Shown here: positions 46,377-64,000 of the stretch, piece by piece
Layout: every line of letters starts with the position of its first letter
Numbering within the stretch: position 1 is the stretch's first letter
From: Candidatus Eiseniibacteriota bacterium
GTDB lineage: Bacteria; Eisenbacteria; RBG-16-71-46; JABDJR01
Assembly: GCA_963762255.1 (NCBI GenBank)
Contig: CAVXKA010000001.1
Span: forward strand, 800,001-864,000
DNA length: 64,000 nt
Reading direction: 5' to 3'
Program-made: the position numbers and the translations under genes
The notes under the pieces: generated by a model
What the model was told of the DNA's origin: nothing
Seen by the model: only the letters and a program-made list of their open reading frames with translations
Database searches by the model: none

Positions 46377-46400
46377 CCCGGATCTGTCCCCGCAATGCAC

Positions 46401-48491: not shown

Positions 48492-49030
48492 ACGCAGCGG
48501 AGCTGGCGGAACTGATCGCCGCGGACGCGCCAGCGGATAGCGAGTTCGGCGCCCTACTCGAGTTTCGTCCGCTGATCGTCAACGGCGCGCGTCGCCCGCG
48601 CCCGGAGATGCTGGCGCTTGCGCACCTGCTCGAACACCCGGCGATCGAGCCGGATCTCGTTGGAGGCCCGTTCTACGAGAATCGCGCCATCAAGCGTTCG
48701 AACGAGGATCTCGGTCGCGTGCTCGCCATCGCGCGCCTGAGCACGGAGGAGGAGATCGTCGCGTGGGCGGCCGCCTGGGAGGACGCGCTGGAGAACTGTT
48801 TCCCTTCACGTTGGGAGTCGTTGGGTCGGCGCGTGGGCGCGGGATTGCGAGCGCTCCTCGCGAGCGACCGCGACATGAAAGAGGCCCACACCGCGTGCGC
48901 CAACGGACTCCTCGCGACGCTGCCGGTCACTGCGGAGCAGCTACGCCTCACCGGGTTCCGCCTGCTCCAGGACGCGGTCGAGCCGCTGGAGCATTCCGCC
49001 GGCGGGTGGGACCACAGTCCACCCGGGTGA
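48488..49030 (+). pseudogene. Short partner ORF, possibly an internally deleted AbiEii-like nucleotidyltransferase
   Basis: GTGA overlap with the upstream gene. Only a helical C-terminal-type region (KRSNEDLGRVLAIA) is present; no G[GS]...DxD motif is visible. Confidence 0.4.
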
Positions 49031-49068
49031 ACCGGCGGCCGCCCCGCCCGTCACAGCTCGGACCCTCC

Positions 49069-49407
49069 TCACCCCCCGATGATCTCGTTCAGGCCTTCGA
49101 TCATCCGGGTGATCACCTCGGGTGCGACGCGGCCAAGTTTGCGACCGATGCGGTCCACGGACAGCGTGCGGATCTGACTGATCTTCACCCAGGAGCGTTT
49201 GGGGAGGCCGGCCGAGCCGAGTTCCAGCGTCAGCGGGAATCCCGCCTGCTGCGGCTGACTCGTCAGCGCCACGGCGATCACGGTTCCGGACCGCTCGTTG
49301 AAGATGTCGTGGCTGAGGATGAGGACCGGTCGCATCCCTGCCTGCTCGCGCCCCTGGGCCGGATTGAGGTCGGCCCACCGGATCTCTCCCCTTAGTACTC
49401 TGGCCAT
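49069..49407 (-). CDS. mazF: PemK/MazF-family endoribonuclease toxin
   Basis: RGEIRWADLNP..GREQAGMRPVLILS...SQIRTLS..RI. Confidence 0.92.
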   Translation of the reverse strand: MARVLRGEIRWADLNPAQGREQAGMRPVLILSHDIFNERSGTVIAVALTSQPQQAGFPLTLELGSAGLPKRSWVKISQIRTLSVDRIGRKLGRVAPEVITRMIEGLNEIIGG

Positions 49408-49634
49408 TCGGACACATCCGCTGCCAGGCCCTCGTCGGCGAGGGCTTTCTCGTAGGTGGGATCCAGCTTCGCGCACTCGCGGGCCAGCCGTCCTTTTTCC
49501 AGGCGATCGAGCTTCTCGTCCAGCGCATCTTGGATGGCCCGGCTCCGATTCGGGAACTCCCTGTCGGCCACCAACCCGTCCAGCCTTTCCAAAGTCTTGT
49601 TGTCCAGTGTGATCGCGATCTTCGACTTCTTCAT
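49392..49634 (-). CDS. Ribbon-helix-helix (CopG/NikR-like) antitoxin
   Basis: KIAITLD...FPNRSRAI. Overlaps the toxin start. GGAGG RBS. Confidence 0.9.
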   Translation of the reverse strand: MKKSKIAITLDNKTLERLDGLVADREFPNRSRAIQDALDEKLDRLEKGRLARECAKLDPTYEKALADEGLAADVSEWPEY

Positions 49635-49645
49635 GGCCGCCTCCG

Positions 49646-49666
49646 GGTATGATGATATGTCATACC
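49646..49666. promoter_or_regulatory. Palindromic operator of the RHH-MazF operon
   Basis: Perfect inverted repeat GGTATGA-N7-TCATACC just upstream of the antitoxin RBS. Confidence 0.6.
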
Positions 49667-49692
49667 AGCGCGTGGAGCAAAGGAGCAAAGGG

Positions 49693-49851
49693 GTGGAACA
49701 CTCGGGGGATGAAGAGAGAATCTACGCGTTGGGGCACACCCACGCAGGCCGGCATCTCTTCATCGTATGGACGGTTCGCGAACGGGAGATCCGGGTCAGC
49801 TCGGCCCGCGACATGAGCACGAAAGAGCGCAAGGTTTATCGATCGTCATGA
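49693..49851 (+). pseudogene. 5'-truncated BrnT toxin
   Basis: HS.DEERIYALG.T..GRHLFIVWTVR..EIRVSSARDMS.KERKVY. The N-terminal FEWD...N..KH part is absent. Confidence 0.8.
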
Positions 49852-50126
49852 GTAACAAGAAGCCCCGTAGGTTGCAGAGCGAAGAAGCTGAGCGAAAGTA
49901 CTGGGAAGTGCATGAATCGACCCAGCAGGTGGATTGGTCCAAGGCCGAGCGCATCACCCTGTCCAACCTCAAGCCTTCAGTAAAGACGATCTCCCTGCGC
50001 ATCCCCGAATCGATGCTGGAGAAACTGAAGCTGCTCGCCAACCAGCGGGACGTGCCGTATCAATCACTGATCAAGGTGTTCCTGGCCGAGCGGATTCGCA
50101 AGGAATTGAAAGGCCAGGGCGCCTAG
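49848..50126 (+). CDS. BrnA/CopG-like antitoxin
   Basis: EEAERKYWE.H.S, NLKPS.KTISLR, RDVPYQSLIK. ATGA coupling to the BrnT fragment. Confidence 0.88.
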   Translation: MSNKKPRRLQSEEAERKYWEVHESTQQVDWSKAERITLSNLKPSVKTISLRIPESMLEKLKLLANQRDVPYQSLIKVFLAERIRKELKGQGA

Positions 50127-50176
50127 CGGAGCCGCGTCGTGGGAGAGGCCGTTGCTCACCCGGGTGAGCAATCGCC

Positions 50177-50238
50177 CCCGGACGCCCCGGTTCAGCGACG
50201 GCCGCGGAGCGGACCGTCCGGCCAATCGGCCGTCAGCC
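50177..50238 (-). repeat. Degenerate attC-like site on the minus strand
   Basis: Minus strand GGCTGAC-GGCCGATTGGCCGGACGGTCCGCTCCGCGGCCGTCGCTGAACCGGGGC-GTCCGGG resembles attC3 in length and layout. Confidence 0.45.
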
Positions 50239-50290
50239 GGCCTCTTGTCACATTGCAGCGTCCGCAGATCGGCAGTGATATCAACAACCG

Positions 50291-51382
50291 TTATGGCGTG
50301 ATAGCGACCTTGAGTACGCCGTCACGTTGGTTCACGAACAGGTCGTAGGCTTCTTCAATCTTTGCGAGCGGAAACCGGTGGGTAACCAGGGGCCGCAGGT
50401 CTGCTCGTTCGGCGGCCAGGACGTTCAACAGTCGGCGCATCCGCTCCTTCCCTCCCGGGCAAAGAGTCGTCACGACCGTGTGGTCGCCGAGCCCTGCCGC
50501 GAAGGCGTCCAGCGGTAGCGTGAGCTTGCCAGAGTAGACACCCAAACTCGAGAGCACGCCACCTGGCCGCAGGACGCGCAGACAGTTCTCGAACGTCGCT
50601 TGCGTGCCCAGCGCCTCGATCGCAACGTCCACCCCGCGCTGGCCGGTAGCCTCCAGGATCGCCTGAACCGGATCGCGCTCCTGGTAGTTGATGATGACGT
50701 CGGCACCCAGTTGGCGAGACATGGCGAGCCGCTCCGGCACCGAATCGACGCTGAAGATCCGGGTCGCGCCCATGAGCTTCGCGCCGACCGTTGCACAGAG
50801 CCCGATCGGGCCCTGCGCGAATACCGCGACGGTGTCCCCGATTCGGATCTGACCACTCTCCGCACCGCCGAAGCCTGTGCTCATGATGTCGGGGCACATG
50901 AGCACCTGCTCGTCGGTCAAGTGATCGGGGATCGGCTCCATGTTGGCCGTGGCCTCGGGAATCAGTACATACTCGGCCTGGCAACCATCAATGGAGTTGC
51001 CGAGCCGCCAGCCACCCATCGCCTTGCCGCCGCACTGGGCCTGTTTCCCGTCGAGGCATGCGTGGCACTGCCCGCAAGGAGTAATTGCGCCGGCGATCAC
51101 ACGCTGGCCGATCTCATAGCCCGTGACCGCCTCCCCGAGTTCCTCGATGATACCCACCGGCTCATGACCTACGGTAAGCCCTCGAGCGACTGGATACTCA
51201 CCCTTAAGAATGTGCACGTCGGTACCGCAGATCGTGGTGGTCGTCACCCGCAGCAGTGCGTCGCGCGGCCCCACCTCGGGAACAGCCTTGTCCACCAAGA
51301 CAATGCGGCCGGCCTCAGCAAAAACAGCCGCCTTCATCGTGCGGCTACGCCGCCCTGATTGCATACGATTGAGGTGCGTCAT
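50291..51382 (-). CDS. Zinc-dependent alcohol dehydrogenase (MDR family)
   Basis: ICGTDVH, GHEPVG, CGQCHAC...C, DIMSTG, QGPIGL. Alternative start at 51337. Confidence 0.92.
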   Translation of the reverse strand: MTHLNRMQSGRRSRTMKAAVFAEAGRIVLVDKAVPEVGPRDALLRVTTTTICGTDVHILKGEYPVARGLTVGHEPVGIIEELGEAVTGYEIGQRVIAGAITPCGQCHACLDGKQAQCGGKAMGGWRLGNSIDGCQAEYVLIPEATANMEPIPDHLTDEQVLMCPDIMSTGFGGAESGQIRIGDTVAVFAQGPIGLCATVGAKLMGATRIFSVDSVPERLAMSRQLGADVIINYQERDPVQAILEATGQRGVDVAIEALGTQATFENCLRVLRPGGVLSSLGVYSGKLTLPLDAFAAGLGDHTVVTTLCPGGKERMRRLLNVLAAERADLRPLVTHRFPLAKIEEAYDLFVNQRDGVLKVAITP

Positions 51383-51413
51383 TGTTCGCCTCGTGTCAGA
51401 AATGTCTGTCCGC

Positions 51414-51848
51414 CTAACGGCCCGCGTAACCCGCGGGCGGGACCGGCGCAGTCGCCATGACCGCCTGCATCTGTGCCGTGTCTACGTACTGCTGGAAGCT
51501 CGACAGCTTGCCGTCCCGAAAGCGCAGAACGTGACACGCCTGAGCATCGATGCTCTTGCCGGAAGCTTGGTAGGTGCCGGTGTAGCGGCCTTCCATCACG
51601 ACGTGTTCGCCGGCGTCGTGGAGTTCGCGTACGGTGATCGCGAAGCCGTCCCACTCCGAACCGAGCCGCATGAAGAGATTCTCAAGCACGGCCTGGGGCC
51701 CGATCCACGCCGCACCATCCGGCTTGTACGGATTGCCCTCGGCCTCCCGCCATTGGATTTCAGGATGGAACCCGGCCAGCACAGTCGGGATGTCACCGCG
51801 CGCGAACGCGGCATACAGGTCTTTCGCGAACTGAACATTGCTCATCAT
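51414..51848 (-). CDS. SnoaL/NTF2-like protein
   Basis: LYAAFARGD, IQWREAEG, FQQYVDT. AGGAG RBS. Confidence 0.88.
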   Translation of the reverse strand: MMSNVQFAKDLYAAFARGDIPTVLAGFHPEIQWREAEGNPYKPDGAAWIGPQAVLENLFMRLGSEWDGFAITVRELHDAGEHVVMEGRYTGTYQASGKSIDAQACHVLRFRDGKLSSFQQYVDTAQMQAVMATAPVPPAGYAGR

Positions 51849-51879
51849 GAACTCCTATCCTCCTTGCGTTCCCCGAACG

Positions 51880-53568
51880 CTACTTCACGAACAGCATCCG
51901 CCGCGTCTCGTCGAAATGTCCCGCCCGAACGCGATAGAAATACACACCCGCGGGAGACGGAACGCCCGATGCGTCAACGCCGTCCCAGTTGAGTATCGTG
52001 GTGCCGCTGCCGGAGGATCCCTCGTAGCGGCGCACCAATCTCCCGCGGATGTCGAAGATGGAAACCGAGTAGTCGCCTGCTTCCGGCAGATCGAAGGCGA
52101 TGGCGGTGCGCGCGGAGAACGGGTTCGGCGCATTCTGCCTCACCGCGAACGCGACCGGGCGTCCTGGATCACCGGGGCCGACGCCGGTGGTCGCCAGGTA
52201 CTCGAACCCGGTGGCGAGCGTATCGCGCGCGCCTTCCACGTCCACGATCACGTCCACCGGACCGCTCGCGCCCAGCATGGCCTGGGGAAGCGCGCAGGTC
52301 ATGATCGAGTCGCTGGGGCACTGCACGTCGGCGGCCGATGCGCCGCCGAAGGACACCGCGCGCGCGTACGCGGACGAGATTCCGAAGTTCTCACCCCGAA
52401 TGGTGATCACCGTGCCGCCGCCGATCGGGCCCATGTTGGGGGTGACGTCGAACACCTCGGGGGGCATCCACTTGATTGGGTAGCACACTTCGCTGACGCC
52501 CGGCAGCTCCAGACAGAGTGGCTCGCTGCCGCCGGGCACGCCGGGTAGGCCATCCACCACGAACGAGCTATGCCCTCCGTAGCTGAGCTCGCCGACGGGC
52601 ACGCCGCCCACGCTCGTGGAACGCTGCGCGCCGGAGCTGCCGAAGTTCTGCCCCTGGATGGTGAGGCGCACGCCACCTCGCGCGGGCATGAGCGAGGGCT
52701 CAATGCCGGTGATGACCGGTGAATCGTACGTGAAGAGCTTGGGTTGGGATGACGTCGATCCCGCGAACACCACGAGTTCGCCCGCGCCGGGATCATCCTC
52801 CGGCGTCGTGCACACGAGCATCGTCTTCTCTCGGGTGGAGCATGATGCGGGTTTGTTCTTGATCGTCACCGACGCGTCGGGGCCGAAGTTGTCTCCGACG
52901 ATCGTGATGACGGTGCCGCCCGCGGTTGGTGCATTCGGCGGGATGATCGATGACACCAGCGGCGGGTCGAAGTCGAAGGCGAAGCTGTTGGATAGCTGCC
53001 CGCTCACTGCGACTTGCAACGCCACGCGCGTGTTGGCGGTGCCGGCCGGGGTCACGCAAGTGATCATCGAGTGGCTCAGATGCTGCACGTTGCTTCCCGG
53101 CAGGCCGCCGAGCGTGACCGAGGTGGGGGCCGATGCGCGGCCGAAGTCCTGGCCGGTGATCGTGATGAGCACGCCACCCGCTGCGGGCGACGCGCCCGGA
53201 GTGACTAGACTGATGCTCGGCGAGTCGAACGTGAACGGCTCCGGCGGAGAAGATTCTCCGGTCGAGGAAAGCACGACGACATCTCTCGCGCCGGGATCGC
53301 CCTCCGGGCACGTGCAGATGATGCGCGAGAGACCCCAGTCGGTGACCTCGGCGCTCGTGCCGCCCACCGTCACCGTGCCGGCGTCGGCCGCGAAGTCCGA
53401 TCCGAAGATCGTGATCGGGAAGCCGCCGACGGTCGGGCCGTTGGTCGGAGAGATGCCGACGATCGAAGGCGGTGCGGCGTCGGCGGGCGCCACAACAGAC
53501 GGCGCCAGCGAAGCGATGAGAGCGAACGCGAACAGGAACGCGACGCGAGTCGTGACAAAGCGGCGCAT
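51880..53568 (-). CDS. Secreted protein with five IPT/TIG domains and C-terminal FlgD-Ig domain
   Basis: Signal peptide and five P.I..I.P...P..GG..ITI.G..F units. C-terminal QNAPNPF...IFDIRGRLV...WDG...AGVYF. Confidence 0.9.
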   Translation of the reverse strand: MRRFVTTRVAFLFAFALIASLAPSVVAPADAAPPSIVGISPTNGPTVGGFPITIFGSDFAADAGTVTVGGTSAEVTDWGLSRIICTCPEGDPGARDVVVLSSTGESSPPEPFTFDSPSISLVTPGASPAAGGVLITITGQDFGRASAPTSVTLGGLPGSNVQHLSHSMITCVTPAGTANTRVALQVAVSGQLSNSFAFDFDPPLVSSIIPPNAPTAGGTVITIVGDNFGPDASVTIKNKPASCSTREKTMLVCTTPEDDPGAGELVVFAGSTSSQPKLFTYDSPVITGIEPSLMPARGGVRLTIQGQNFGSSGAQRSTSVGGVPVGELSYGGHSSFVVDGLPGVPGGSEPLCLELPGVSEVCYPIKWMPPEVFDVTPNMGPIGGGTVITIRGENFGISSAYARAVSFGGASAADVQCPSDSIMTCALPQAMLGASGPVDVIVDVEGARDTLATGFEYLATTGVGPGDPGRPVAFAVRQNAPNPFSARTAIAFDLPEAGDYSVSIFDIRGRLVRRYEGSSGSGTTILNWDGVDASGVPSPAGVYFYRVRAGHFDETRRMLFVK

Positions 53569-53622
53569 GATGGTTTTCCTCTCAGGGGGACAATGCGGCG
53601 ACCGGGATAAAATAAGACCAAA

Positions 53623-53651
53623 ATAGTAGCTAATACTGGGGCCGGCGTCAA
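53623..53651 (-). promoter_or_regulatory. Sigma70-type promoter for the IPT/TIG gene
   Basis: Minus strand TTGACG-N17-TACTAT. The -35 overlaps the upstream gene's stop codon. Confidence 0.6.
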
Positions 53652-55708
53652 TCCCCTTGCGAGGCAAGCAGTTCCAGCATCTGCCGGGCCTCAGCGGAAC
53701 GCGGGTCTGCGGGGGCCGTGGCCAGAAAGTTCTCGAGGCTTCGCCGTGCCCGCGCCGGGTCGCGCACCGCGGGATGGAGCGCGAAGAGGAAGCCCTCGGC
53801 GCGCAGCACCTCGGGATCGGGCTGGAACGCGGCGTCGCCGGCCGGCCGGAGATCTGGCTGAAACTCCGAGTCGCTCAGCGGCCGCGCGTCGGGCGGCAGA
53901 CCGCTCGCATCGTGCCGGTCGAAGAACGCAATCAGCCTCGCGAACCCCGGGTGCTCCGCGGGCGTGATGTCGAACGCCTCGGGGCGGCAGAGATGGATCG
54001 CCGTGCGCGCGGCCAACTCGGCGAAGCGCGCGCGCGCGTCGGCCTCGAAGCTCCACGGATCGTAGCGGCGGAAGTAACTCTCGGTCTTCATCGCGGCGAA
54101 GAGATCGAGCGCGAGCATGGCCTGCTCACGCGGGCCGGGGGCCTGGTCCAGCCGGCTGGACCGCGCGCTGCTGTCCGCGGCCCCGCGTGCGTACGTCCGC
54201 AGCACGAACCCGGTCGGCGCGATCTCGTAGCGGGCCGCGTAGCTCGCTTCCTTGAGCCCCAAGAGCGTCACCAGACGCTTCCCCTCGAGGTGCTCGATCC
54301 ACGCGAGGTTGCCGCTCTGCGGCGTGCCGTCGTAACGGTCCTCGCGTCCGAGCGGCGACGGCAGCAGATCCGGATCGCGCCGTCGCAATGTGCGCACGTA
54401 CCACGCGAAGGTGAGCTTCTCCTGGTCCACCACCGCGACGTCGGGGCGCTCACCTTCGACAAGCTGAAGATACGCGAGTCCGTTGTGGAAGAGATCGCCC
54501 TGCGTGAAGAGCACGCCGCGCTCGGGCACGGAAGCAAGCACGCCGCGACACAGGTCCTCGGTGAGCGTGTTTCCACGTTGATCGACTGCGCGGTAGTGCG
54601 CCGCCACCGGCCACGCAAAGGCCGCCACGACCAGGACCGCAGCGGTCGCGCGCCGCCCGCCACCGCGAAGGCGTTCCAGCACGAAGGCCGCACCGAGCCC
54701 CGCTGTCAACGCGAGCACCACGTTCGGCAGGATGTAGAAACGCTCCACGACGCCGCGGAAGATGAGCGGATGCGACGGGAACCCGACCCGGGTGAAGAAG
54801 AACGTCTGCAGCAGCAGGAAGATGAGGATGATCCCGCCGAGCGCTCGGTGCTTGCGCGCCAGCGCGACCGCGCCGACGAGAGCAAGCGCTACCCCAAGCC
54901 ACGTGAACCCCTGAGGGAGTGACTGAAGATAGAGGAGCACGTGACTATGGTCGGCCGCGTGCCCCGCCTGCTCGGGATCCAGACGAAACGTGCCGTAGTC
55001 ACGGCGAAGCAGCACGCGCAGAAACGAATCCAGCGAGCGCGGATCGCCCCAGTTGAGCGCCGGATTGCGGAGCGCGGCCCACGGAAGATAGAGGAGAGGC
55101 GCCAGGCCGATCGCGGCGCCAAGCGCGCCTACGCCCAGAACCCGCCTGCGGCCGGTCAGTGCCGTCGCTACCGCCACCGGCAGCGCCAGCAGCACGAGCG
55201 TGTGGTGATGCGACAGAAGTAGCGTGCACAAGAGCCCGATGCCGAATGCCACCGCCGGCCGCGGCGACTCAGGCCAGCGGACGAACAGCCAGAGCAGCAA
55301 CGCTGCGAGAAGCGCATTCGGGGCGAACACCTCGGCGACCAGCGCGTATTTCCAGAGCGGCGCGGAGAACGCGAGAAGGAACGCGGCCACCAACCCCGCT
55401 GCTGTCGACCGCGTTAGTCGCCGCACAGCATCGGCCAGGAGCACCGCCGCCACCGCCGCGCACGCTGCGGAGAGCAAGTTCATGCGCGTCGCCACCGAAC
55501 CGATCGGCACCAGCGTGATCCAGAGGTGGCCGAGCATCGTGAAGAGGGGATAGCCGGGTGGATGGGCAACGCCCAATGTCTTCGCCACCGTGATCAGTTC
55601 GCCCGAGTCTCCGCCCGGCACCGAGCGCTGCAAGGTGGCCGCGTAAACCGCGAGCGGAATCGCACCCGCAGCCACCAAGAGAGGAAGGACGATGCGTCGT
55701 TCGTTCAC
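53648..55708 (-). CDS. DUF2723/TMEM260-like GT-C protein O-glycosyltransferase
   Basis: GDSGELI...GVAHPPGYPLF, RMNLLSA, AEVF, SHH, LYLP, NWGDP. C-terminal TPR-like helix. Confidence 0.88.
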   Translation of the reverse strand: MNERRIVLPLLVAAGAIPLAVYAATLQRSVPGGDSGELITVAKTLGVAHPPGYPLFTMLGHLWITLVPIGSVATRMNLLSAACAAVAAVLLADAVRRLTRSTAAGLVAAFLLAFSAPLWKYALVAEVFAPNALLAALLLWLFVRWPESPRPAVAFGIGLLCTLLLSHHHTLVLLALPVAVATALTGRRRVLGVGALGAAIGLAPLLYLPWAALRNPALNWGDPRSLDSFLRVLLRRDYGTFRLDPEQAGHAADHSHVLLYLQSLPQGFTWLGVALALVGAVALARKHRALGGIILIFLLLQTFFFTRVGFPSHPLIFRGVVERFYILPNVVLALTAGLGAAFVLERLRGGGRRATAAVLVVAAFAWPVAAHYRAVDQRGNTLTEDLCRGVLASVPERGVLFTQGDLFHNGLAYLQLVEGERPDVAVVDQEKLTFAWYVRTLRRRDPDLLPSPLGREDRYDGTPQSGNLAWIEHLEGKRLVTLLGLKEASYAARYEIAPTGFVLRTYARGAADSSARSSRLDQAPGPREQAMLALDLFAAMKTESYFRRYDPWSFEADARARFAELAARTAIHLCRPEAFDITPAEHPGFARLIAFFDRHDASGLPPDARPLSDSEFQPDLRPAGDAAFQPDPEVLRAEGFLFALHPAVRDPARARRSLENFLATAPADPRSAEARQMLELLASQGD

Positions 55709-55764
55709 GACGCGGGAGTATACCGGCTTGCCCAAACCGGGCCGCAGCGGGATCATCGCCGGCC

Positions 55765-56985
55765 ATGGCATCGCTCCCCCTCGCACCCCTCGTCATCTTC
55801 GCCGCGACCTATTTGGGCCTGGCTCTCGGCCGGATCCCCGGACTCGCGGTGGACCGCACCGGCATCGCGCTCCTGGGTGCGGTGGCCATGCTCGCCGCTC
55901 GCACTGTGACCGTCGAAGAAGCCAAGGCCGCGGTGGACGCGCCCACCATGATCCTCCTCTTCGGGATGATGGTGCTCTCCGCTCAGTACCGGCTCGCCGG
56001 CCTCTACGATGCGATCGCGCGGCGGCTGGCGGGCGCGCCGAGCCCTCGGCGCATGCTCGCCGGCGTGATCGTCGCCGCGGCGATGCTGAGCGCGGTGCTC
56101 ACCAACGACGTCGTTTGCTTCGCGCTCACCCCGGTTCTTGTGGTCGGGCTCAAGGGAGCGGGTCTCAACCCGCTGCCGTACCTGCTGGCGCTCGCATGCG
56201 CCACCAACATCGGAAGCGCGGCCACTCCCATAGGCAACCCGCAGAACATCCTCATTTCGCAGAAGATGGGGCTCGCGTTCGGACCGTTCGTTCTGCACTG
56301 CATCGTCCCGGTTCTGCTCTCGCTGGTGGCGCTCTATTTGATGATCGTGCGGTCGGTGCCGAAGGTCATGCCCGCGCGCACTCTCGCGACCGAATCGTTC
56401 GAAACGCAACCGCTCCAGCGCGGCCAGGCTGCCAAGGCGATCGCCCTCACCGCGGGTGCAATAGCGCTCTTCCTCACCCCGGTTCCTGCGGCGCTCACCG
56501 CGATGGCGGTGGCCGGCGTGATCCTGGCCAGCCGTCGCATGCACACGCGCACCGTGCTGGGTCTGGTGGACTGGCATCTGCTCGCGCTCTTCGTGGGGCT
56601 GTTCGTGGTGGTGCGAGGACTGGAGGCGTCTGGGTGGGTCGGGGCCGCCGCGCGGCTTCTCGCGGTGTGGGGCGCCGACCTTGCCGTGCCGACGGTATCC
56701 ATCCCCGTAGTGGCGGTGCTCGGCAACCTCGTCGGCAACGTCCCCGCGGTAATGCTGCTCTTGCCGCTCACGCCGCCCGAGCCGATCGCCGGCTACGCGC
56801 TCGCGCTGGCGAGTACCCTCGCCGGCAACGCGGTCATCGTCGGCAGCATCGCCAACATCATCGTCGCGGATCACGCGGAGCGTGAAGGAGTCCGGTTCGG
56901 GTTCCGTGAGCACCTGCGCGTCGGGTTACCTATCACGCTGGTCTCGCTCGCGCTGGCGGTGGGGACCATGGTCTGGTGGAAATGA
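55765..56985 (+). CDS. SLC13/ArsB/CitM-superfamily anion permease (YbiR-like)
   Basis: DRTGIALLGA, LTNDVVC, NIGSAATPIGNPQN, VDW.LL.LF, NVPAV, STLAGN...GSIAN. Confidence 0.9.
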   Translation: MASLPLAPLVIFAATYLGLALGRIPGLAVDRTGIALLGAVAMLAARTVTVEEAKAAVDAPTMILLFGMMVLSAQYRLAGLYDAIARRLAGAPSPRRMLAGVIVAAAMLSAVLTNDVVCFALTPVLVVGLKGAGLNPLPYLLALACATNIGSAATPIGNPQNILISQKMGLAFGPFVLHCIVPVLLSLVALYLMIVRSVPKVMPARTLATESFETQPLQRGQAAKAIALTAGAIALFLTPVPAALTAMAVAGVILASRRMHTRTVLGLVDWHLLALFVGLFVVVRGLEASGWVGAAARLLAVWGADLAVPTVSIPVVAVLGNLVGNVPAVMLLLPLTPPEPIAGYALALASTLAGNAVIVGSIANIIVADHAEREGVRFGFREHLRVGLPITLVSLALAVGTMVWWK

Positions 56986-57154: not shown

Positions 57155-58486
57155 ATGGATCGCGCCCGTGCTTCCATTCTGTTGCTCGCAGTGTTCTTCG
57201 TCCTGGGTGTTCTCGGTGCGTCTCCCGCCGTCGCGTCGGACCGCGTCGATCCGTTGGCATTCCTAAGGCGCGCAAGCGCGTCGGGGATGCTCGATAACCA
57301 ACCCAATGCGCGTCTCGTCGCGCACGTCGTCCCCGCCGCCGCCGGTCTCGACAGCGCCGCGGCGTGCGGCCATCTGACCCCGATCGATTGCCGTTGGGGC
57401 GAGAAGACCTTCGTCACCGAAGCGCCGCTCTCCTCCGCGGAGACGCCCAACTTCTGGGTCTATCTGATCGTCACGAACTACGACACCCAATTGGGCATCG
57501 CCGGCGTCCAGTACGGAATCGAGTTCGATGGCCGGAGTCTTCAGGGAGTGGACGTCCTCGACTACACCTCGTGCAGCCATCTCGATTTCCGATCCGACAA
57601 TTTCCCCACCGACGCGGGGAGTTGGAACACCCAGGTCTGGGTGCCGGACTGGGCCAATGATCCGCGCTATCCGTGCGAGCACTCGGGATTCACGGTGGTG
57701 GGGTGCTTCACGGTGTCGGCCGCGAGCCCCGATCTGTTTGAGGTCTTGCCCCGGCAGGTGGATCGCGCGCTCAAGGTCGCCGACTGCGTACACGGCGCGG
57801 AGACGACGCTTTCCGCGGACGCCGCCGGCGCGATCGCGTTCGGCGGTGCGCTCGGCCGCGATCCGTGCTCCGGTCAGCCGGCCGAACCCGGCTCGCCCGT
57901 CCTGGATCCGCTGCCGCTCCTGATGGGTCACGCCGTGCCGATGGAGGACACTCCCGACATGAGCTGTGGCATGCCCCCCGAATTCCCCTGCGTCCAGGGT
58001 GAATCGCATGCCGGGACTCGAATCTCCCTGACAGGGGGAGCGACGACCTACGCATACGTCTACGTGTTCACGTCCTCTCTGCCGGACGACCTGCGCGCGG
58101 GGCGCGTGGGGTTCTACCCCATGACGACCGGAGGAGTGCGCATCGAGAGCTGGCTACCCTGCGCCGATTCCGAGATGACCCTTGCGGGGCCCGTGGTGTC
58201 CTACTGGAACACCGATGTCTGCCATGCAGGCGAGCGACGGCTGGCAGGGATTCTCTCGGTGAGCGCGACCGGCCCGGGAGAGGTGCGACTCGAACGCGTC
58301 TGGATCCAGGTCACGCGCTGCGACGGATCCCGATATGGCGAGTATGGCCCTCCCGCGTTCTCCGTCGGCTTCGGAGACGTCGAAGGCTCCGACCCCTGCG
58401 TCGAGCACGGCGTCGTCGCGCTGACTCCCAGCCGGGCCACGCAGCCCGCGACGTGGGGGCGAATCAAGACCATGTTCGGGAGCTAG
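57155..58486 (+). CDS. Secreted Cys-containing protein with duplicated domain and C-terminal PATWGRIKTMF tail
   Basis: Signal peptide and two H.VP...C...C...VY...FG...G.DPC units. Confidence 0.8.
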   Translation: MDRARASILLLAVFFVLGVLGASPAVASDRVDPLAFLRRASASGMLDNQPNARLVAHVVPAAAGLDSAAACGHLTPIDCRWGEKTFVTEAPLSSAETPNFWVYLIVTNYDTQLGIAGVQYGIEFDGRSLQGVDVLDYTSCSHLDFRSDNFPTDAGSWNTQVWVPDWANDPRYPCEHSGFTVVGCFTVSAASPDLFEVLPRQVDRALKVADCVHGAETTLSADAAGAIAFGGALGRDPCSGQPAEPGSPVLDPLPLLMGHAVPMEDTPDMSCGMPPEFPCVQGESHAGTRISLTGGATTYAYVYVFTSSLPDDLRAGRVGFYPMTTGGVRIESWLPCADSEMTLAGPVVSYWNTDVCHAGERRLAGILSVSATGPGEVRLERVWIQVTRCDGSRYGEYGPPAFSVGFGDVEGSDPCVEHGVVALTPSRATQPATWGRIKTMFGS

Positions 58487-58529
58487 GCTGCGGCCAGCCA
58501 CCGGACCAAGGGCCAAGAAGGAAAAAGAA

Positions 58530-58564
58530 AGCGGGCGGACGTGTCTCGCAACGCCCGCCCGCTC
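58530..58564. terminator. Intrinsic terminator between convergent genes
   Basis: AGCGGGCGGACG-loop-CGCCCGCCCGCT with an A-rich left flank, giving a U-tract on the minus strand. Confidence 0.65.
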
Positions 58565-58668
58565 TCAGGGGATGTTCGATGCCTTGCAGCGTCCGCGCCT
58601 TCGCCAGTGGGGACTCCGGCGCCGACCGGTCGGTCTAGCCAGGCTTTACAGGAACGCCCCCCTTTTCA

Positions 58669-59889
58669 CTAGTTCCCGCCAGTGCCTGTGCCGTCACAGA
58701 TCCCGTCGCGATCGCGGTCCTGAATCGGATTGCGGAGCCGGATCTTGTCCTGGTCCTTATCCTGGTCCGGAACTCCGGTGCTGTCGCAAGTTCCGTCCTG
58801 GAGTTTGATCTGATCCCGGGTCCGGTCACCGGCCATGGAGAAGGTCATGGTGCTGTCGCAGCTTCCGTCGCGGAGCCGAGACTGGTCCCCGGACTGATCA
58901 CCGTTGCCGTCCCCATTGCGGGACTCGATTTGCTTCATGACCTGATCGCCGCCGAGGGTGGTCAGGCAGCTTCCGTCGCGATCGCGGTCCTGGATCGGAT
59001 CGCGGAGCCGGATCTTGTCCTGGTCCTTATCCTGGTCCGGAACTCCGGTGCTGTCGCAGCTTCCGTCGCGAAGCTTGATCTGGTCCCGGGTCCCGTTTGC
59101 GGATGTGGTGCCGGTTTCGACTGCGTTGTCGCCGTGCCCGCGGCCATGTCGCATGTCACCGCTGTAGCCCTGGCCGTGGCCGCGCGCGCCGTGCATCACC
59201 GGCTTCAGGATGAACACCTTGCTGCCGGGAGGCGTCTCAACCACCGACCTCGCCAGATCGAACCGGATCATGATCTCGGTCACCTGACCGTCGGCGACGG
59301 TGAACCGCACACCGACCTTCAGGTACTCGTTGTCTCCGGGGAGTCCAACCGGGTACGTCTCGCCGTCCTCGGTCACCACCCACGCCTCGACGATTCGCAC
59401 CGACAGGTGCGAGTAGTCGCCCGCGGGCAGATCGAGCGTCCCCAGCAGCAACGCCAAGGAGGTGTCGAGGTCGGCCGCGTTCAGCGTCAGCGGGTCCACG
59501 AGGAATTCGATCGGGACGCACGTGCTGTCACCGACTCCTTCGCCATCTCCCTGGTGCATCGAACTGTCTTCAGAGACGGGATACACGCGGATCGAGTCGA
59601 AGGTGACGAAGAGATCGGCGAGCGGGGTGCGCTTCTTGGAACCGGAGTTCCCGTTCCCCGCGGTTGCCGTCACGCCCTCAACGTCGTCGTTGAGCGTGCC
59701 GATGGCCTGTATAGAGACCGCGAGCATGCCCAATCCGGTCCCTGCCGCCGGCGGGTTGAAGTCGTCAATCGAAACCGATCCGGGAGCGGCGGGATTTCCG
59801 TCCGAACCGCACCCCCAAATCGCGAGAACCAACGCCAGGGCCGTGATGACCGGCGCCAAGCGTTTCAGATACACGATACGTTGCTTCAT
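58669..59889 (-). CDS. DUF4382-domain lipoprotein with repetitive D/R/Q-rich C-terminal tail
   Basis: Lipobox AIWGC. LPAGDYSHL, FDLARSV and FILKPV (DUF4382). LRDGSCD repeats. Confidence 0.82.
   Translation of the reverse strand: MKQRIVYLKRLAPVITALALVLAIWGCGSDGNPAAPGSVSIDDFNPPAAGTGLGMLAVSIQAIGTLNDDVEGVTATAGNGNSGSKKRTPLADLFVTFDSIRVYPVSEDSSMHQGDGEGVGDSTCVPIEFLVDPLTLNAADLDTSLALLLGTLDLPAGDYSHLSVRIVEAWVVTEDGETYPVGLPGDNEYLKVGVRFTVADGQVTEIMIRFDLARSVVETPPGSKVFILKPVMHGARGHGQGYSGDMRHGRGHGDNAVETGTTSANGTRDQIKLRDGSCDSTGVPDQDKDQDKIRLRDPIQDRDRDGSCLTTLGGDQVMKQIESRNGDGNGDQSGDQSRLRDGSCDSTMTFSMAGDRTRDQIKLQDGTCDSTGVPDQDKDQDKIRLRNPIQDRDRDGICDGTGTGGN
58703..59093. repeat. Two ~121-bp intragenic direct repeats (58703-58823 and 58973-59093)
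   Basis: Near-identical copies 270 bp apart encoding GTRDQIKLxDGxCDSTGVPDQDKDQDKIRLRxPIQDRDRDG (first residue varies). Confidence 0.9.
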
Positions 59890-59967
59890 CCGAGTAACTC
59901 CTCTTTGCCCAGGGGATTGTTCGACCCGCCCCGCGCCATTGGCGTTTCTTACTTGGGACACCCGTGA

Positions 59968-59993
59968 GACGGCTTGACCTATGATCGGTTACA
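59968..59993 (-). promoter_or_regulatory. ECF-type promoter for the DUF4382 lipoprotein
   Basis: Minus strand TGTAAC-CGATCATAGGTCAAGC-CGTC (N16). Confidence 0.75.
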
Positions 59994-60028
59994 GGGGGGA
60001 AACCTTTCGCTCTTGGTCGGGTTTCTTC

Positions 60029-60054
60029 TGTAACTCGGGGGATCGGGCGTCGTC
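60029..60054 (+). promoter_or_regulatory. ECF-type autoregulatory promoter of the sigma operon
   Basis: TGTAAC-TCGGGGGATCGGGCGT-CGTC (N16). Confidence 0.75.
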
Positions 60055-60130
60055 GAATCGGGTGAAAAGAACCGGCGGCTCGGGAACTCCGTCCCCCCTC
60101 CCGTTCCGAACCGCGCACTGCGCGCATGGG

Positions 60131-60730
60131 GTGGTCTTGAGCGATCGTAGCCGTCTAGACCCCGCTGAGGAGTCCGATCTTCTCCGGCGGTCGCAGCAGG
60201 GCGACACCGAGGCTTTTGGCCGACTGGTTCGGGCTCATCAGGATTCGATTTACGGGCTCGTGGTCCGCATGGTGCGTGACCCGGGTCTTGCCGAGGAGCT
60301 GACACAGGACAGTTTCCTCAAAGCGTACCGGGCGCTGGATTCGTTCCGGGGCGCTTCGCGGTTCTCGACCTGGCTCTACCGCATCGCGGTCAACGCGTGT
60401 CACGACCATCGGGAAAGCTCGGCGGCGCGGCGCCGGAGTCAGGAGACGAGCCTCGATCGCCTCGAACATCACGACATGGATCCGGCGGCACCGACCGCGC
60501 GGCCCGACCAGGCGGTCGAGTTCAACGAGATGGCGGGACATTTCGACGCGGGGCTCGCGACGCTGGAGCCCACTCACCGAGAGGCGTTCGTGCTCCGCCA
60601 CCAGGAAGGTCTTGAGTACAGCGAGATCGCCGAGGCGCTCGGCATCTCCGCCGGAAACGCAAAGGTGCGGGTGCACCGGGCACGCGAGGCGATCCTCGCC
60701 ACGCTGCGCACCCGCGGTTACGAGGTCTGA
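60131..60730 (+). CDS. ECF RNA polymerase sigma factor
   Basis: GDTEAFGRLV, AEELTQDSFLKAY, FSTWLYRIAVN, EGLEYSEIAEAL, KVRVHRAR. Start approximate. Confidence 0.93.
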   Translation: MVLSDRSRLDPAEESDLLRRSQQGDTEAFGRLVRAHQDSIYGLVVRMVRDPGLAEELTQDSFLKAYRALDSFRGASRFSTWLYRIAVNACHDHRESSAARRRSQETSLDRLEHHDMDPAAPTARPDQAVEFNEMAGHFDAGLATLEPTHREAFVLRHQEGLEYSEIAEALGISAGNAKVRVHRAREAILATLRTRGYEV

Positions 60731-60733
60731 ACG

Positions 60734-61427
60734 ATGACGAACGATCGTGAAACCCGAGACATCGACCCTCGGATTCACGCCTATCTGGACGGGGAACTGT
60801 CCCCTTCGGAAGCTGCTGCCTTCGAAGAGGACCTGCGATCTGGGAAGATCTCCGGCAGGCAGTTGGATGCCCTCCAACGGATCGACATCTGGTGCCGGGC
60901 TACCTCCTCGCGGGCCCCGTCCTCTCTTGCTCGGGACGTGGGTCGCGCGCTTCGGGACCAGCGCGCGTCCGCGCCCCGGGCGTCCTCCTCCCGCGTGCCT
61001 TCTTGGCTCAACCCCGCAGGTTGGAACGTTGGGTGGACCGGTGGGTCGCGCCGGTATTGGATTCCTGCTGCGGCGGCGCTGGCGGTGCTGGCCCTGTGGT
61101 TGGTCGTTCCTCGTCACGACTCCACTGAATCTGGCCAATCTCCCCACCGAAGAAGCGATAGCCTCCCCGAATACGGTACGCTATGAGTTCCGGTTCGAGG
61201 CTGGATCCGCAGCCGAGGTGTGCCTTGCCGGCGACTTCAATAGCTGGAAGGTTTGCGATGCGCGGCTGAGCCGCGTCGGGGAGGATGTCTGGTCCGTTTC
61301 GCTGGAGCTCCCACCCGGGCGCTACGAGTATATGTTCGTCGTCGATGGCCGCTGGGTGACCGATCCCCACGCCATGGGCTTCCACGACGACGGATTCGGG
61401 AACCAGAACGCCATCCTCGTCCTCTGA
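60734..61427 (+). pseudogene. Anti-sigma factor with TM helix and C-terminal CBM48/AMPK-type glycogen-binding domain, split by a +1 frameshift near 61142-61145
   Basis: The first frame has IHAYLDGELS and TM AAAALAVLALWLVV and stops at 61186. The +1 frame has VCLAGDFNSW...WSVSLELPPGRYEYMFVVDGRWVTDP...DDGFG. Confidence 0.8.
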
Positions 61428-62710
61428 TCCTTTCGGCTTTCGCCGCAATCCTCCTGCTCGCGCTCGCGCTCTCTTCGTGCCCCGTGTTCGCGGTGTCTCC
61501 CCAATGGACCATGGGCCTCACCCTGGGTCACGACGATCAGGTGCTGGCGAGCCCCGATCTCGGGGTAGTGCGCCCGGTCTCGGAGGGGTTTCTCACCGGA
61601 TCGTCGCGCCTGTTGTTGCGTTGGACCGACGCTGCGTTGAGCCGGCGTCTGGATCTCGACGGCTCCGCCGCCGCGACCGGATACGGCTCGCAGGTGGAAG
61701 GCGGGGACACCGATCTTCGCCTCGGGGGGGCTTACCGCCAGCGACTTTCTGCACGGTGGGCGATGGATATGTCGGGCGGTGTGTGGCGATCCCGCCGAGG
61801 CGCCGCCGGATCCGTGCTCGATCTCGACCTTGCCCGCGCGGGCGCGCGCGTTGCGTGGACACCGGGTGATCGTTGGGTGCTGACCACGGGAATCCTGCCG
61901 GCCTGGTTGGGATTCCCCGAGCGCCTCGTGTTCCCCGATTCGACCGAGAGCGAATGGCAGCGTCAGCTCGATGTCTCGGCAGGCGGGCTCTACCGCTTTG
62001 ACGGCGACCGCTACGTCGGCGCCGAGTTCATTCATCGGCGGACGACTTCGAATCAGGACCGATCCGAGTACACCGGACCGCTCTTCGTACTCCGAGCAGG
62101 GGCCCCGCTCGCCTGGGGTCTCGCATTGACCGCCTACGGCAGCTACGCGCACCGCGCCTACGACGTCGCGCCTGTGCTGGCCGCGACCGACGCCGGCGCT
62201 TACGACACGCTCGGAGTGCGTCGCGACGACGGCTGGCTCGTGAGCGCATCGATCGAGCGGCGAGTCGGCAGTCGCGCGCACGTCTTCCTCGACGGGTCCT
62301 ACCTGCACCAGGCCTCGAACGACGCGTACTACGCGTTCGATCAGGCTCGGATTGCGGTGGGGATCTCGGTGGATCTCGCCGCGCCGTCACGGGCGCGGCA
62401 GGGCGGTCCCGAGCTTCAGCGGGCAGGCCCCATGGCGCCGCTCATCACCGCGCAAGGGGTCCGATTCCGCTACCGCGCGCCTCAAGCCCGAGCGGTCGCC
62501 CTGGTGGGTGGATTCAATGCGTGGGACGCCGAGCGCTCGCCCCTGGCCGGGCCCGACAAGAACGGGGTGTGGGAGACTGTGGTGCCCGTAGTCGCCGGCG
62601 TGTGGCGATATGCATTCCTGGTGGATGGGGAGTGGGTGAGCCCCCCCGATGCCCCCCGCTACGAGGACGATGGATTCGGGGGGCGCAACGGTGTCATCCA
62701 TGTGCGATAG
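61424..62710 (+). CDS. Putative outer-membrane beta-barrel protein with C-terminal CBM48/AMPK-type domain
   Basis: Signal-like N-terminus (start uncertain, CTG) and alternating beta strands ending SNDAYYAFDQARIAVGISV. VALVGGFNAW...GVWRYAFLVDGEWVSPP...DDGFGG. Confidence 0.78.
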   Translation: MILSAFAAILLLALALSSCPVFAVSPQWTMGLTLGHDDQVLASPDLGVVRPVSEGFLTGSSRLLLRWTDAALSRRLDLDGSAAATGYGSQVEGGDTDLRLGGAYRQRLSARWAMDMSGGVWRSRRGAAGSVLDLDLARAGARVAWTPGDRWVLTTGILPAWLGFPERLVFPDSTESEWQRQLDVSAGGLYRFDGDRYVGAEFIHRRTTSNQDRSEYTGPLFVLRAGAPLAWGLALTAYGSYAHRAYDVAPVLAATDAGAYDTLGVRRDDGWLVSASIERRVGSRAHVFLDGSYLHQASNDAYYAFDQARIAVGISVDLAAPSRARQGGPELQRAGPMAPLITAQGVRFRYRAPQARAVALVGGFNAWDAERSPLAGPDKNGVWETVVPVVAGVWRYAFLVDGEWVSPPDAPRYEDDGFGGRNGVIHVR

Positions 62711-62723
62711 AACGGGTTGGCCC

Positions 62724-62749
62724 TGTAACGCGAGGCGGCTCGAGCCGTC
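62724..62749 (+). promoter_or_regulatory. ECF-type promoter for the 62830 gene
   Basis: TGTAAC-GCGAGGCGGCTCGAGC-CGTC (N16). Confidence 0.75.
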
Positions 62750-62829
62750 GAAGTGGTTGAGTCCAAGAGCACGCGGGAGGGGCACCCGGTCTGGGGACTT
62801 TTGCACAAGTCACACAAGGATAGGGTGTT

Positions 62830-63825
62830 ATGAGAGCTAAACCAAATGCGCGCGGAGCGGTGGGGATGGCCTTCCTGCTGTGCGCCTTGACGGCGGGGCT
62901 GCCCGTTTCGGCTGCTGCTGCTGAAGCCGCGCCAGCCCCGGCCCTTTCCGAGGCCCTGACCGCCTATGCGACGTCGCCGCTCTCCGGCGAGCTCGCCCAA
63001 CGCGCGGGGTCGGCGGTGCGCCTCGGTGCGGACCCCGCGGCATTGGCCGAGTTCATCGCCGGCGCAGGCTCTCAGGCCGTGCCGGATCGCGATGTCCTGG
63101 CCGCGCTCACCCGCGCCGAACACCTGGCCGGCGCTCGTCTTCCCGTTGGCCCGGTCTTGAGCCGCTACATGCAGGGGCTGGCCAAGGGGATTCCCTTCAC
63201 GCGCATCGAGACCGTGGTGGACGGACTCCAGGCGTGGCTTGTGGATTCGGCGCGGCGCATCGATGCGGCCCTCCCCGCAGCGGCTGGTCGTGAGGAGGAG
63301 CGCGCCCGGCTCACCGCCATCGATCACGGCGCGTATGCCCTGAGCGTGGGCGTCCCCGAGGCGGCGCTGGATCGCTCGATCCAGCTTGCGGCGAAGGAGT
63401 CTCACCCGGTGGAGGCGGCGCAAGCCCCGGTACTTGCGCTTGGCGTGCTGGTGGCGTCCGGAGCGAATCCCGAGAAATCCTGGGAAATTGTGAACGCGGC
63501 GTGGAGGAGCGGCTACCGGGGCGAGGATCTGGAGCGACTGGGGAAGGCGCTCGGCAGGTTGAGCCGCGACGGGCAGGGCCCGCCCACGGAGGTGATCGAC
63601 CAGGTGCTGACCCAGATCAGCGGCAACGCGGGCCGCGACCGGGTTTTCGAGGGGCTCGACGCCCTTTGCGGTGACGGAGGCGGGCGAAGCACCGGCGCCA
63701 GCCCCGGTGCAGGCAAGGGCCAGGATCCCGCTCGCGACCGGCCGGACAATGACCGGGGACAGGGCGACCAGGGAGGCCACGGCGGCCACGGCGGCGGCCG
63801 TTCATCCCAGTCCCAGACCTTCTAG
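62830..63825 (+). CDS. Secreted helical hypothetical protein with Gly-rich C-terminal tail
   Basis: Signal peptide ...GLPVSA, QGLAKG motif, GGHGGHGGG tail. Confidence 0.75.
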   Translation: MRAKPNARGAVGMAFLLCALTAGLPVSAAAAEAAPAPALSEALTAYATSPLSGELAQRAGSAVRLGADPAALAEFIAGAGSQAVPDRDVLAALTRAEHLAGARLPVGPVLSRYMQGLAKGIPFTRIETVVDGLQAWLVDSARRIDAALPAAAGREEERARLTAIDHGAYALSVGVPEAALDRSIQLAAKESHPVEAAQAPVLALGVLVASGANPEKSWEIVNAAWRSGYRGEDLERLGKALGRLSRDGQGPPTEVIDQVLTQISGNAGRDRVFEGLDALCGDGGGRSTGASPGAGKGQDPARDRPDNDRGQGDQGGHGGHGGGRSSQSQTF

Positions 63826-64000
63826 GGCGCCCACCCTCCGGTGAGGGCGCTTCCCGATCCGGGCGCCGCTTGCCGGTCCGGGCGATCCGCGCAATTTCTG
63901 ACGAAGCGCCCCGAAACCTGGGGCGCTTCCCTTTTCTCCCCGCTCCGACGCTGCTAGAATAGCGGCCCGTTTGCCCCGTACCCATTCCGCATCCCCACAC

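Follow-up and report, generated by a model that had tools for sequence, protein, structure and literature searches.

The stretch of DNA analysed here (the window) comprises 64,000 nucleotides from a metagenome-assembled genome of Candidatus Eiseniibacteriota bacterium (GCA_963762255.1, contig CAVXKA010000001.1, positions 800,001 to 864,000 of the forward strand) and contains, close to its right end, a compact gene cassette for an extracytoplasmic function (ECF) sigma factor, an anti-sigma factor and three predicted envelope proteins. Six-frame reading together with Pfam searches places five genes between 58.5 and 64.0 kb, a region with a G+C content of about 61–72%: the gene of a DUF4382 lipoprotein on the reverse strand and, on the forward strand, the genes of the sigma factor, the anti-sigma factor, an outer-membrane barrel ending in a CBM48-type carbohydrate-binding module (CBM), and a secreted helical protein. 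A first-pass annotation made from the letters of the window had listed these same components, joined by the promoter motif TGTAAC-N16-CGTC, and all five genes and the motif were indeed found; the domains and proteins on that list stand, whereas the anti-sigma factor is not a single open reading frame in the window, being split by a one-base insertion at 61131. Terminator-like hairpins at 58527–58566 (reverse strand, 3′ of the DUF4382 gene; 16-bp stem and T tail) and at 63903–63929 (forward strand, 3′ of the helical-protein gene) form the left and right limits, so that the cassette is slightly longer than the 58669–63825 originally assigned to it. Its architecture and regulon are well supported; as to its function, we tentatively favour, at somewhat short of an even chance, a self-contained ECF sigma/anti-sigma envelope cassette in which paired CBM48 domains would sense a glycan and thereby gate proteolysis of the anti-sigma factor.

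The sigma-factor gene (about 60131–60730, forward strand; start GTG 60131 or TTG 60137) encodes regions 2 and 4 only, with Pfam matches to Sigma70_r2 (E = 9.8e-19), Sigma70_r4_2 (1.2e-14) and Sigma70_ECF (2.1e-7). The protein scores 106.7 bits against the general ECF superfamily model of NCBIfam (TIGR02937, cut-off 42.9) and lies far under the cut-off of all NCBIfam equivalogs (RpoE, SigW, SigY and others). The context is that of an ECF factor as well: the anti-sigma gene starts 4 bases past the sigma stop codon, and a predicted promoter of the AAC/CGT type lies upstream of the sigma gene. The N-terminal part of the anti-sigma factor (60734–61186, forward strand, frame 2) combines a zf-HC2/RsiW-like sigma-binding domain (PF13490, E = 2.1e-6; profile match to RsiW, 5wuq_C, E = 1.9e-9) with one transmembrane helix and ends at a premature stop at 61186, caused by the insertion. 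The periplasmic linker and the CBM48/AMPK1_CBM-type domain are encoded in frame 0 (61131–61427, stop codon included) without a start codon of their own, the domain matching PF16561 with 45.8 bits (cut-off 26.8; E = 7.1e-12) and PF02922 with E = 8.9e-7.

The two parts are separated by a +1 frame change that corresponds to a single additional base, at 61131 on the forward strand, when compared to related loci. The anti-sigma gene is continuous in all 16 of the related loci whose anti-sigma frame was inspected; P0024, a close relative with 91% identity to the CBM-bearing fragment of the window (61131–61424), reads through the linker, and a contig of about 91% identity from sequencing run X2 has exactly one base fewer at 61131. 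In addition, a second frame change exists in the same assembly (three contigs, 4.14 Mb), in one of the few genes inspected there, which encodes four CBM48 domains followed by GH13. Because the relatives are intact and this second gene is frame-shifted as well, the split of the anti-sigma gene is most likely an indel of the assembly. Were the insertion instead real, the switch would be broken in this genome: an anti-sigma factor without its sensor domain, and a cassette that is constitutively on or decaying. The insertion is present in the assembly, and among the sequencing runs screened for the strain of the window none was found to contradict it (the best shares 0.33 of sampled words and none reaches half). 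Against this, the other cassette genes are intact and their promoters perfect, another inspected gene of the assembly carries a frame shift, and P0024 reads through; we thus regard a broken switch as highly improbable.

Contigs from run X3, an RNA library labelled as ice metagenome, cover 60600–61117, a span that includes the last part of the sigma gene (its 3′ end) and the N-terminus of the anti-sigma factor. Two of the three X3 records show 95–99% likeness and one is under 90%; the two long ones (11, 12) have few differences. As these contigs belong to a relative and may reflect carried-over DNA, they provide no evidence of transcription.

The frame behind the anti-sigma gene (about 61424–62710, forward strand, 428 codons, start codon uncertain) had been put forward as a beta-barrel with a second CBM48 domain, and the AF2 model (mean pLDDT 84.3) agrees with this: an N-terminal signal peptide precedes a barrel of 14 strands (residues 23–319) with short turns on both sides, followed by a flexible linker modelled at low confidence (320–340) and a C-terminal beta-sandwich CBM (341–428), which matches PF02922 with 40.8 bits (cut-off 22.4) and PF16561 with 36.0 bits. 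With Pfam thresholds relaxed to E up to 5, BBP2_2 is found in 11 of 18 barrel-family members (best 1.1e-5) and OMP_b-brl in 6 of 18; the protein of the window matches neither. Foldseek retrieves 14-strand barrels in general, including CymA (TMt 0.56), OmpG (0.62–0.63) and FadL. CymA is a cyclodextrin channel, but since the matches are generic its appearance here is no evidence of glucan transport. OmpA has an even number of strands and both of its termini in the periplasm. From the even strand number of the model and the OmpA-like architecture we infer that the CBM48 domain of the barrel should likewise face the periplasm. The barrel family is small, with 19 strong relatives among 5.8 billion clusters. 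A profile of the barrel-CBM protein is matched by 130 of 206 Eisenbacteria species genomes, mostly by the CBM part alone (this tally takes in one unpublished genome, G072, which enters no other result); a near full-length barrel is present in 14 Eisenbacteria genomes, and 2 further ones are cut or partial.

No ATG, GTG or TTG lies ahead of the barrel signal peptide in the window (region 61253–61500). The frame opens on the stop codon of the anti-sigma gene with a CTGA overlap, in which CTG 61424 is the candidate start. With the window included, a canonical start is absent in seven of the 16 loci examined, all belonging to one family (the window, L031, L032, L033, L035, L036 and L037), with the overlap taking the form CTGA, CTAG or CTAA; in more distantly related loci, a short gap precedes a conventional start codon of the barrel gene. 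Some 35–40 codons upstream, in the overlapping frame inside the CBM48 coding region, L032, L033 and L036 have an ATG and L037 a TTG, and the window, L031 and L035 have CTG at the same position. The sequences thus point to either a non-canonical coupled start or a long overlapping leader read from an upstream start.

The secreted helical protein proposed for 62830–63825 (forward strand, 331 aa) was confirmed by its model, which has a pLDDT of about 98 over residues 35–283 and shows an all-helical fold (about 13 helices, an alpha-solenoid of helical repeats) with a disordered Gly-rich tail. Searches gave no Pfam family even at E up to 10, only unnamed clusters in Atlas and nothing in Foldseek at E up to 0.001. 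VIA-align returned designed helical repeats only, with Z up to 9.8, a range common for helical repeats; the protein resembles designed helical repeats and TAL-type repeats at the level usual for such folds. The family is large (1999 representative clusters at E ≤ 0.001 and 142 at E ≤ 1e-30), conserved across phyla and named hypothetical in every source checked.

The remaining gene, on the reverse strand at 58669–59889 (likely ATG at 59889), encodes a protein with a DUF4382 match (PF14321, 44.8 bits, cut-off 25; E = 1.8e-11) and, when read from this ATG, a signal peptide that ends in the lipobox-like AIWGC. We know of no function for the DUF4382 family, and no solved relative of the protein was found at E up to 1. 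In its C-terminal half (58669–59200, reverse strand), an Asp/Cys-rich module some 42 aa in length (..RDGSCDSTGVPDQDKDQDKIRLR..DRDRDG.C) is present twice, alongside a short His/Gly-rich stretch; no tandem DNA repeat was found in the 3′ half of the gene.

What ties these genes together is the promoter motif. TGTAAC-N16-CGTC occurs three times in the window (at 59993 on the reverse and at 60029 and 62724 on the forward strand) against 0.14 expected, and none of 100 shuffles reaches three. The predicted promoters point toward the DUF4382 gene (59968–59993, reverse strand), the sigma gene (60029–60054, forward strand), which would thus be autoregulated, and the helical-protein gene (62724–62749, forward strand), each about 70–80 bases ahead of, and facing, the start codon. 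Only four exact sites exist in the 4.14-Mb genome, three of them in the cassette; the fourth (C3:119546) lies inside a 615-aa open frame and was taken as chance. A weight matrix was built from the 32 exact sites present in the window and in 16 of 17 relatives (no site exists in L043), and in a genome-wide scan with this matrix the sites ahead of the sigma, helical-protein and DUF4382 genes rank first (26.1, 25.9 and 23.8). The next-best site (C2:573632, 20.2) is located between the 3′ ends of convergent genes and was hence rejected as marking no target. The positions of the three sites are kept in relatives: corresponding occurrences of the motif exist in 16 of the 17 related loci, and manual comparison of L032–L035 showed it at the same three gene boundaries. 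The earlier suggestion of one promoter motif joining the genes is therefore borne out. Motifs of the TGTAAC...CGTC/CGTA type also precede the sigma gene in loci of Nitrospirota, Atribacterota, Fibrobacteraceae and Chromatiaceae, and were not found in the Gemmatimonadota loci examined. As far as the motif shows, the regulon appears to be the cassette itself.

Gene order is conserved in the surroundings of 17 barrel homologues, with the sigma factor and the anti-sigma CBM present in 17 of 17 loci, a full-length barrel in 15, the helical protein in 14 and DUF4382 in 10, so that the trans-envelope module first proposed for the window is recognisable as a conserved ECF cassette. An alignment search of species genomes for the anti-sigma-CBM48 protein gave 375 encoding stretches, of which the best 80 were used for all counts across phyla. 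By the labels of their records, these 80 loci belong to Eisenbacteria, Nitrospirota, Gemmatimonadota, Atribacterota, Acidobacteriota, Fibrobacteraceae, Anaeromyxobacter, Chromatiaceae and a few other metagenome-assembled genomes, and hence to at least seven phylum-level groups. The sigma gene lies directly 5′ of the anti-sigma-CBM gene in 79 of the 80, the exception being cut by a contig end. A second CBM48 open reading frame on the same strand within 4 kb accompanies them in 54 of the 80 loci (Eisenbacteria 14/15, Nitrospirota 15/16, Gemmatimonadota 17/33, Acidobacteriota 2/2, Atribacterota 0/6) and a helical homologue in 32; DUF4382 is restricted to Eisenbacteria. The second CBM protein is about 400 aa long with a C-terminal CBM in Gemmatimonadota and Fibrobacteraceae. 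In Nitrospirota, Acidobacteriota and Chromatiaceae it comprises 110–140 aa with a lipoprotein-like signal, and a separate small barrel gene is located 3′ of the helical gene. Synteny across phyla, which the first-pass annotation had put forward for checking with all five genes, holds for the sigma factor, the anti-sigma-CBM48 protein, a second CBM48 protein predicted to be anchored in the outer membrane and the helical protein, but not for DUF4382.

A comparison of the small Nitrospirota barrel (L101:6568–7368) to the Eisenbacteria barrel did not demonstrate homology (hhalign probability 1.7%, E = 0.03). Nitrospirota cassettes contain more genes behind TGTAAC...CGTC motifs (L066:2861–3823; L101:7592–7933 and 8078–9706), which encode lipoproteins and a small secreted protein, all with a very high content of Met, Gly and Thr. 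In this phylum the helical proteins have Met/Gly/His-rich tails, with 15–23% Met in the last 60 residues in 7 of 10 rows. A metal-stress reading based on these Met/His-rich tails and targets was dropped for the window, as none of 11 Eisenbacteria rows is Met-rich (maximum 8%, in L057; 0% in the window).

This distribution bears on the question of whether the second CBM48 protein belongs to the sensor at all. The CBM48 domain of the anti-sigma factor could be the sole sensor, with the barrel-CBM48, helical and DUF4382 proteins as outputs, such as a porin that binds glycan together with binding proteins in the periplasm: the Atribacterota loci consist of the sigma factor and the anti-sigma-CBM protein alone, the helical protein and DUF4382 stand behind predicted sigma-dependent promoters of their own, and a 14-strand barrel with short loops, as in the model, would form an open pore, with CymA as the best Foldseek match. 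However, no separate promoter precedes the barrel gene, which lies in the sigma operon right behind the anti-sigma gene, and a second CBM48 protein is present in 54 of the 80 loci in varied protein contexts. We therefore consider a sole sensor in the anti-sigma factor to be improbable.

Both CBM domains of the cassette score above the Pfam cut-offs for AMPK1_CBM and CBM_48, and the solved structures most closely related to them are modules for alpha-glucans: pullulanase (5ot1_A, 4.8e-14), the CBMs of AMPK beta, SEX4 and GlgB. The anti-sigma CBM matches the AMPK beta1 CBM with E = 3.1e-8. The carbohydrate-contact residues of AMPK beta1 are W100, K126, W133 and N150, as given in the part of the published account drawn on here (PMC4032982). 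Two Trp residues of the cassette domains, those of the motifs DFNxW and VDGxW, align with W100 and W133, a numbering deduced from the 33 residues by which the two Trp are spaced in the AMPK beta1 alignment, and both are invariant in 42 anti-sigma and 18 barrel sequences. The invariant Asn of DDGFGNxN presumably corresponds to N150, which lies beyond the end of the alignment. The presence in the same genome of CBM48 copies fused to GH13 or carried by outer-membrane proteins and lipoproteins was also counted in favour of glucan sensing.

With respect to these paralogues, which lie outside the window, the region C2:747287–750795 encodes a secreted protein in which four AMPK-type CBM48 copies in tandem, each with the Lys that corresponds to K126, precede a GH13 catalytic domain; its reading frame shifts in mid-domain near 749374–749425. 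The cluster at C1:260849–266673 contains an 860-aa frame with an N-terminal CBM48-type domain and an outer-membrane-type C-terminus, two small lipoprotein-like CBM48 proteins and a 929-aa lipoprotein with three divergent copies. This cluster may be a surface alpha-glucan capture locus.

In order to place the two cassette CBMs relative to each other, a tree of 139 domains was calculated over 89 columns, in which many forks are unresolved. All anti-sigma CBMs cluster in a single group of 81 rows with a support of 90/84 (80 labelled as such and L063, a truncated anti-sigma factor labelled as partner). None of 500 label shuffles was as low as the observed tree, but as related sequences share labels this test shows clustering only. 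The partner CBMs fall outside in three groups: one of Gemmatimonadota (100/100), one of Eisenbacteria, Fibrobacteraceae, Nitrospirota and Acidobacteriota (86/72), and one of Nitrospirota that joins the Lys-bearing paralogues (92/86). Because the partner CBMs lie outside the anti-sigma group, the CBM pairing is old and not the result of a recent duplication within each operon. A wider claim would be that the cassette represents an ancient, multi-phylum, TonB-independent ECF switch, in which CBM48 modules of separate lineages on opposite membranes (the outer one on a 14-strand barrel or a lipoprotein) read periplasmic glycan, first of all alpha-glucan or maltodextrin, to control anti-sigma proteolysis, and the helical family is the third conserved component; taken as a whole, we regard this claim as unlikely. 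Complex prediction for the anti-sigma CBM48 and the barrel CBM48 (residues 336–428) gave 0.00 in two runs (mark 0.32), which speaks neither for nor against binding.

In the mechanism that we tentatively favour, the two CBM48 domains, one per membrane, would together form the sensor. The ligand at the Trp/Trp site would most likely be a glycan, with a maltodextrin-like alpha-glucan as the leading candidate, and occupancy of the site would alter the access of regulated proteolysis to the anti-sigma factor, as for RsiW. The sigma factor, once freed, would switch on its own operon together with the genes of the DUF4382 lipoprotein and the helical-repeat periplasmic protein.

Several observations weigh against this mechanism. 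At the position that aligns with K126, the anti-sigma factor has Met and the barrel Ala, and a count by regular expression on that strand found Lys in none of 132 module CBMs (Met 86, Gly 16, Ala 11, Leu 8, Cys 1, Val 1, unclassified 9). All seven paralogues read outside the cassette (GH13-fused and from the C1:260849–266673 cluster) retain the Lys, and the W100G and K126Q exchanges are reported to abolish glycogen binding by the AMPK CBM (PMC6274970). The predicted regulon and the 17 kb upstream contain no glycoside hydrolase or sugar transporter, and a Pfam scan of the 19 open reading frames of at least 220 aa in 40771–55786 found no glucan-active family. The Foldseek matches of the barrel are only generic 14-strand barrels, and the tree group of anti-sigma CBMs (90/84), calculated from only 89 columns, is not strongly supported. 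Furthermore, contig ends cut many of the loci, at least 2.5 kb of downstream sequence being available in only 53 of the 80, and the 15 Eisenbacteria loci among these 80 are from the same genomes as the barrel-homologue loci and hence not independent. Finally, the frameshift in the anti-sigma gene could be real, as no sequencing run of the strain was found. With regard to the lost Lys, AKIN beta2 lacks this residue and yet binds starch in vitro, as stated in the section of the literature used for the contact residues (PMC4032982); the replacement is therefore a warning and not a refutation, and alpha-glucan sensing is, on the sequences, possible.

The same Lys replacement can be read in favour of a sensor of envelope contact or integrity that has no sugar ligand and in which the CBM48 domains are protein–protein modules: it affects every classified copy of the module, and glucan-enzyme paralogues of the same genome keep the residue. 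In such a sensor the CBM anchored in the outer membrane would touch or shield the copy on the anti-sigma factor, the loss of contact (through outer-membrane damage, failed barrel assembly or an altered periplasm) would expose the anti-sigma factor to proteolysis, and the DUF4382 lipoprotein and the helical protein would be repair or feedback output. Consistent with this, the predicted regulon holds only uncharacterised envelope proteins and no catabolic genes; the partner CBM is predicted to be anchored in the outer membrane in both of its forms, fused to a barrel or as a small lipobox-type protein (Nitrospirota, Acidobacteriota); and the anti-sigma stop codon overlaps the start of the barrel frame, suggesting coupled synthesis. 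On the other hand, both Trp residues of the sugar site are invariant over at least seven phylum-level groups, and for invariant surface Trp a conserved small ligand is an easier explanation than contact alone; moreover, the second CBM is found in none of the six Atribacterota loci and in only 17 of the 33 from Gemmatimonadota. We thus consider a pure contact sensor to be somewhat unlikely, though the main competitor to glycan sensing.

The idea of an anti-sigma factor that senses glycogen through such a domain has a precedent. In group ECF278 the anti-sigma factors carry a periplasmic AMPK glycogen-recognition domain, for which glycogen sensing was suggested; the members come from Desulfovibrio, Syntrophobacter and Chloracidobacterium, with a predicted promoter GTGAC/GTATA (Casas-Pastor et al. 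2021, PMC7826278, part of the supplement). Compared by description with that portion, the cassette shares an ECF sigma factor with a single-pass anti-sigma factor at position +1 that bears a periplasmic AMPK-type domain, and differs in its promoter, which is TGTAAC-N16-CGTC and not GTGAC (−35)/GTATA (−10). Neither a second CBM protein nor a barrel, a helical protein, DUF4382 or a self-contained regulon appears in that portion. The cassette can thus no longer be termed undescribed, as the first-pass annotation had it, in respect of the CBM48 anti-sigma factor as glycogen sensor; the barrel partner, the helical protein and the promoter are new relative to that part of the ECF278 account. A literature search beyond ECF278, judged by titles and abstracts, found no account of an anti-sigma/CBM48 fusion.

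Further systems resemble the cassette in part. In the RsgI–SigI system of Clostridium thermocellum, an extracytoplasmic CBM on the anti-sigma factor ties sigma release to external polysaccharide; this is a Gram-positive system with no outer-membrane partner, CBMs of other families and a regulon of glycoside hydrolases. The anti-sigma factor of the cassette likewise exhibits an extracytoplasmic module of carbohydrate-binding type, whereas its sigma factor is of ECF type, its N-terminus is zf-HC2/RsiW-like in place of the combination of SigI and the RsgI N-domain, and no glycoside hydrolases belong to its predicted regulon. FecA–FecR–FecI comprises a 22-strand TonB-dependent barrel with a periplasmic extension, encoded beside an ECF sigma factor and a single-pass anti-sigma factor, and, as with VreA, the signalling partner can exist without a barrel. 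The cassette shares with FecIRA an outer-membrane barrel with a predicted periplasmic extension beside an ECF sigma factor and a single-pass anti-sigma factor with a periplasmic sensor domain, and the small CBM lipoproteins of Nitrospirota resemble the barrel-less VreA. In contrast to FecIRA, neither the barrel nor the anti-sigma factor has a Pfam match to a TonB-dependent receptor, plug, STN or FecR, the barrel has 14 and not 22 strands, and its extension is C-terminal and homologous to the sensor domain of the anti-sigma factor.

In case of RsiW/SigW from Bacillus subtilis, the likeness lies in the N-domain of the anti-sigma factor, which matches RsiW, in the 104 bits of the sigma factor against the SigW model (under its cut-off) and in the promoter: the SigW consensus is TGAAAC-N16-CGTA, which the cassette motif TGTAAC-N16-CGTC resembles. 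RsiW itself, unlike the cassette protein, has no CBM48 domain and no outer-membrane partner. With AMPK beta and the CBM48 family at large the cassette domains share Pfam membership, the W100 and W133 equivalents and a DGFG-x-x-N motif common with pullulanase 5ot1_A; they differ in the Met or Ala at the K126 equivalent and in their location on a periplasmic regulator and an outer-membrane barrel in place of an enzyme or kinase.

ECF sigma factors are a major route of bacterial signalling, and the input is unknown for most groups. The cassette is compact in this respect, with one sigma factor, one promoter type at three sites, a sensor family with a well-known class of ligands and an outer-membrane partner bearing the same type of domain, and its carriers belong to phyla with hardly any cultured members (Eisenbacteria, Gemmatimonadota, Nitrospirota, Acidobacteriota, Fibrobacterota and Atribacterota). 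If the domains do read periplasmic glycan, this would be a way of sensing carbohydrates that is new for diderm bacteria; otherwise the cassette would clearly exemplify the reuse of a carbohydrate-binding fold for sensing envelope contact. In both cases, the sigma factor and its promoter are a candidate orthogonal switch.

Outside the cassette limits, a 443-aa secreted protein is encoded directly upstream (57155–58486, forward strand), with no Pfam or NCBIfam match and no counterpart in any of the 17 related loci. A few kb further upstream, 51880–55786 encodes a 595-aa protein with five TIG domains and FlgD_ig as well as a 712-aa TMEM260-like glycosyltransferase, and an AhpC/TSA protein is encoded at 46401–47219.

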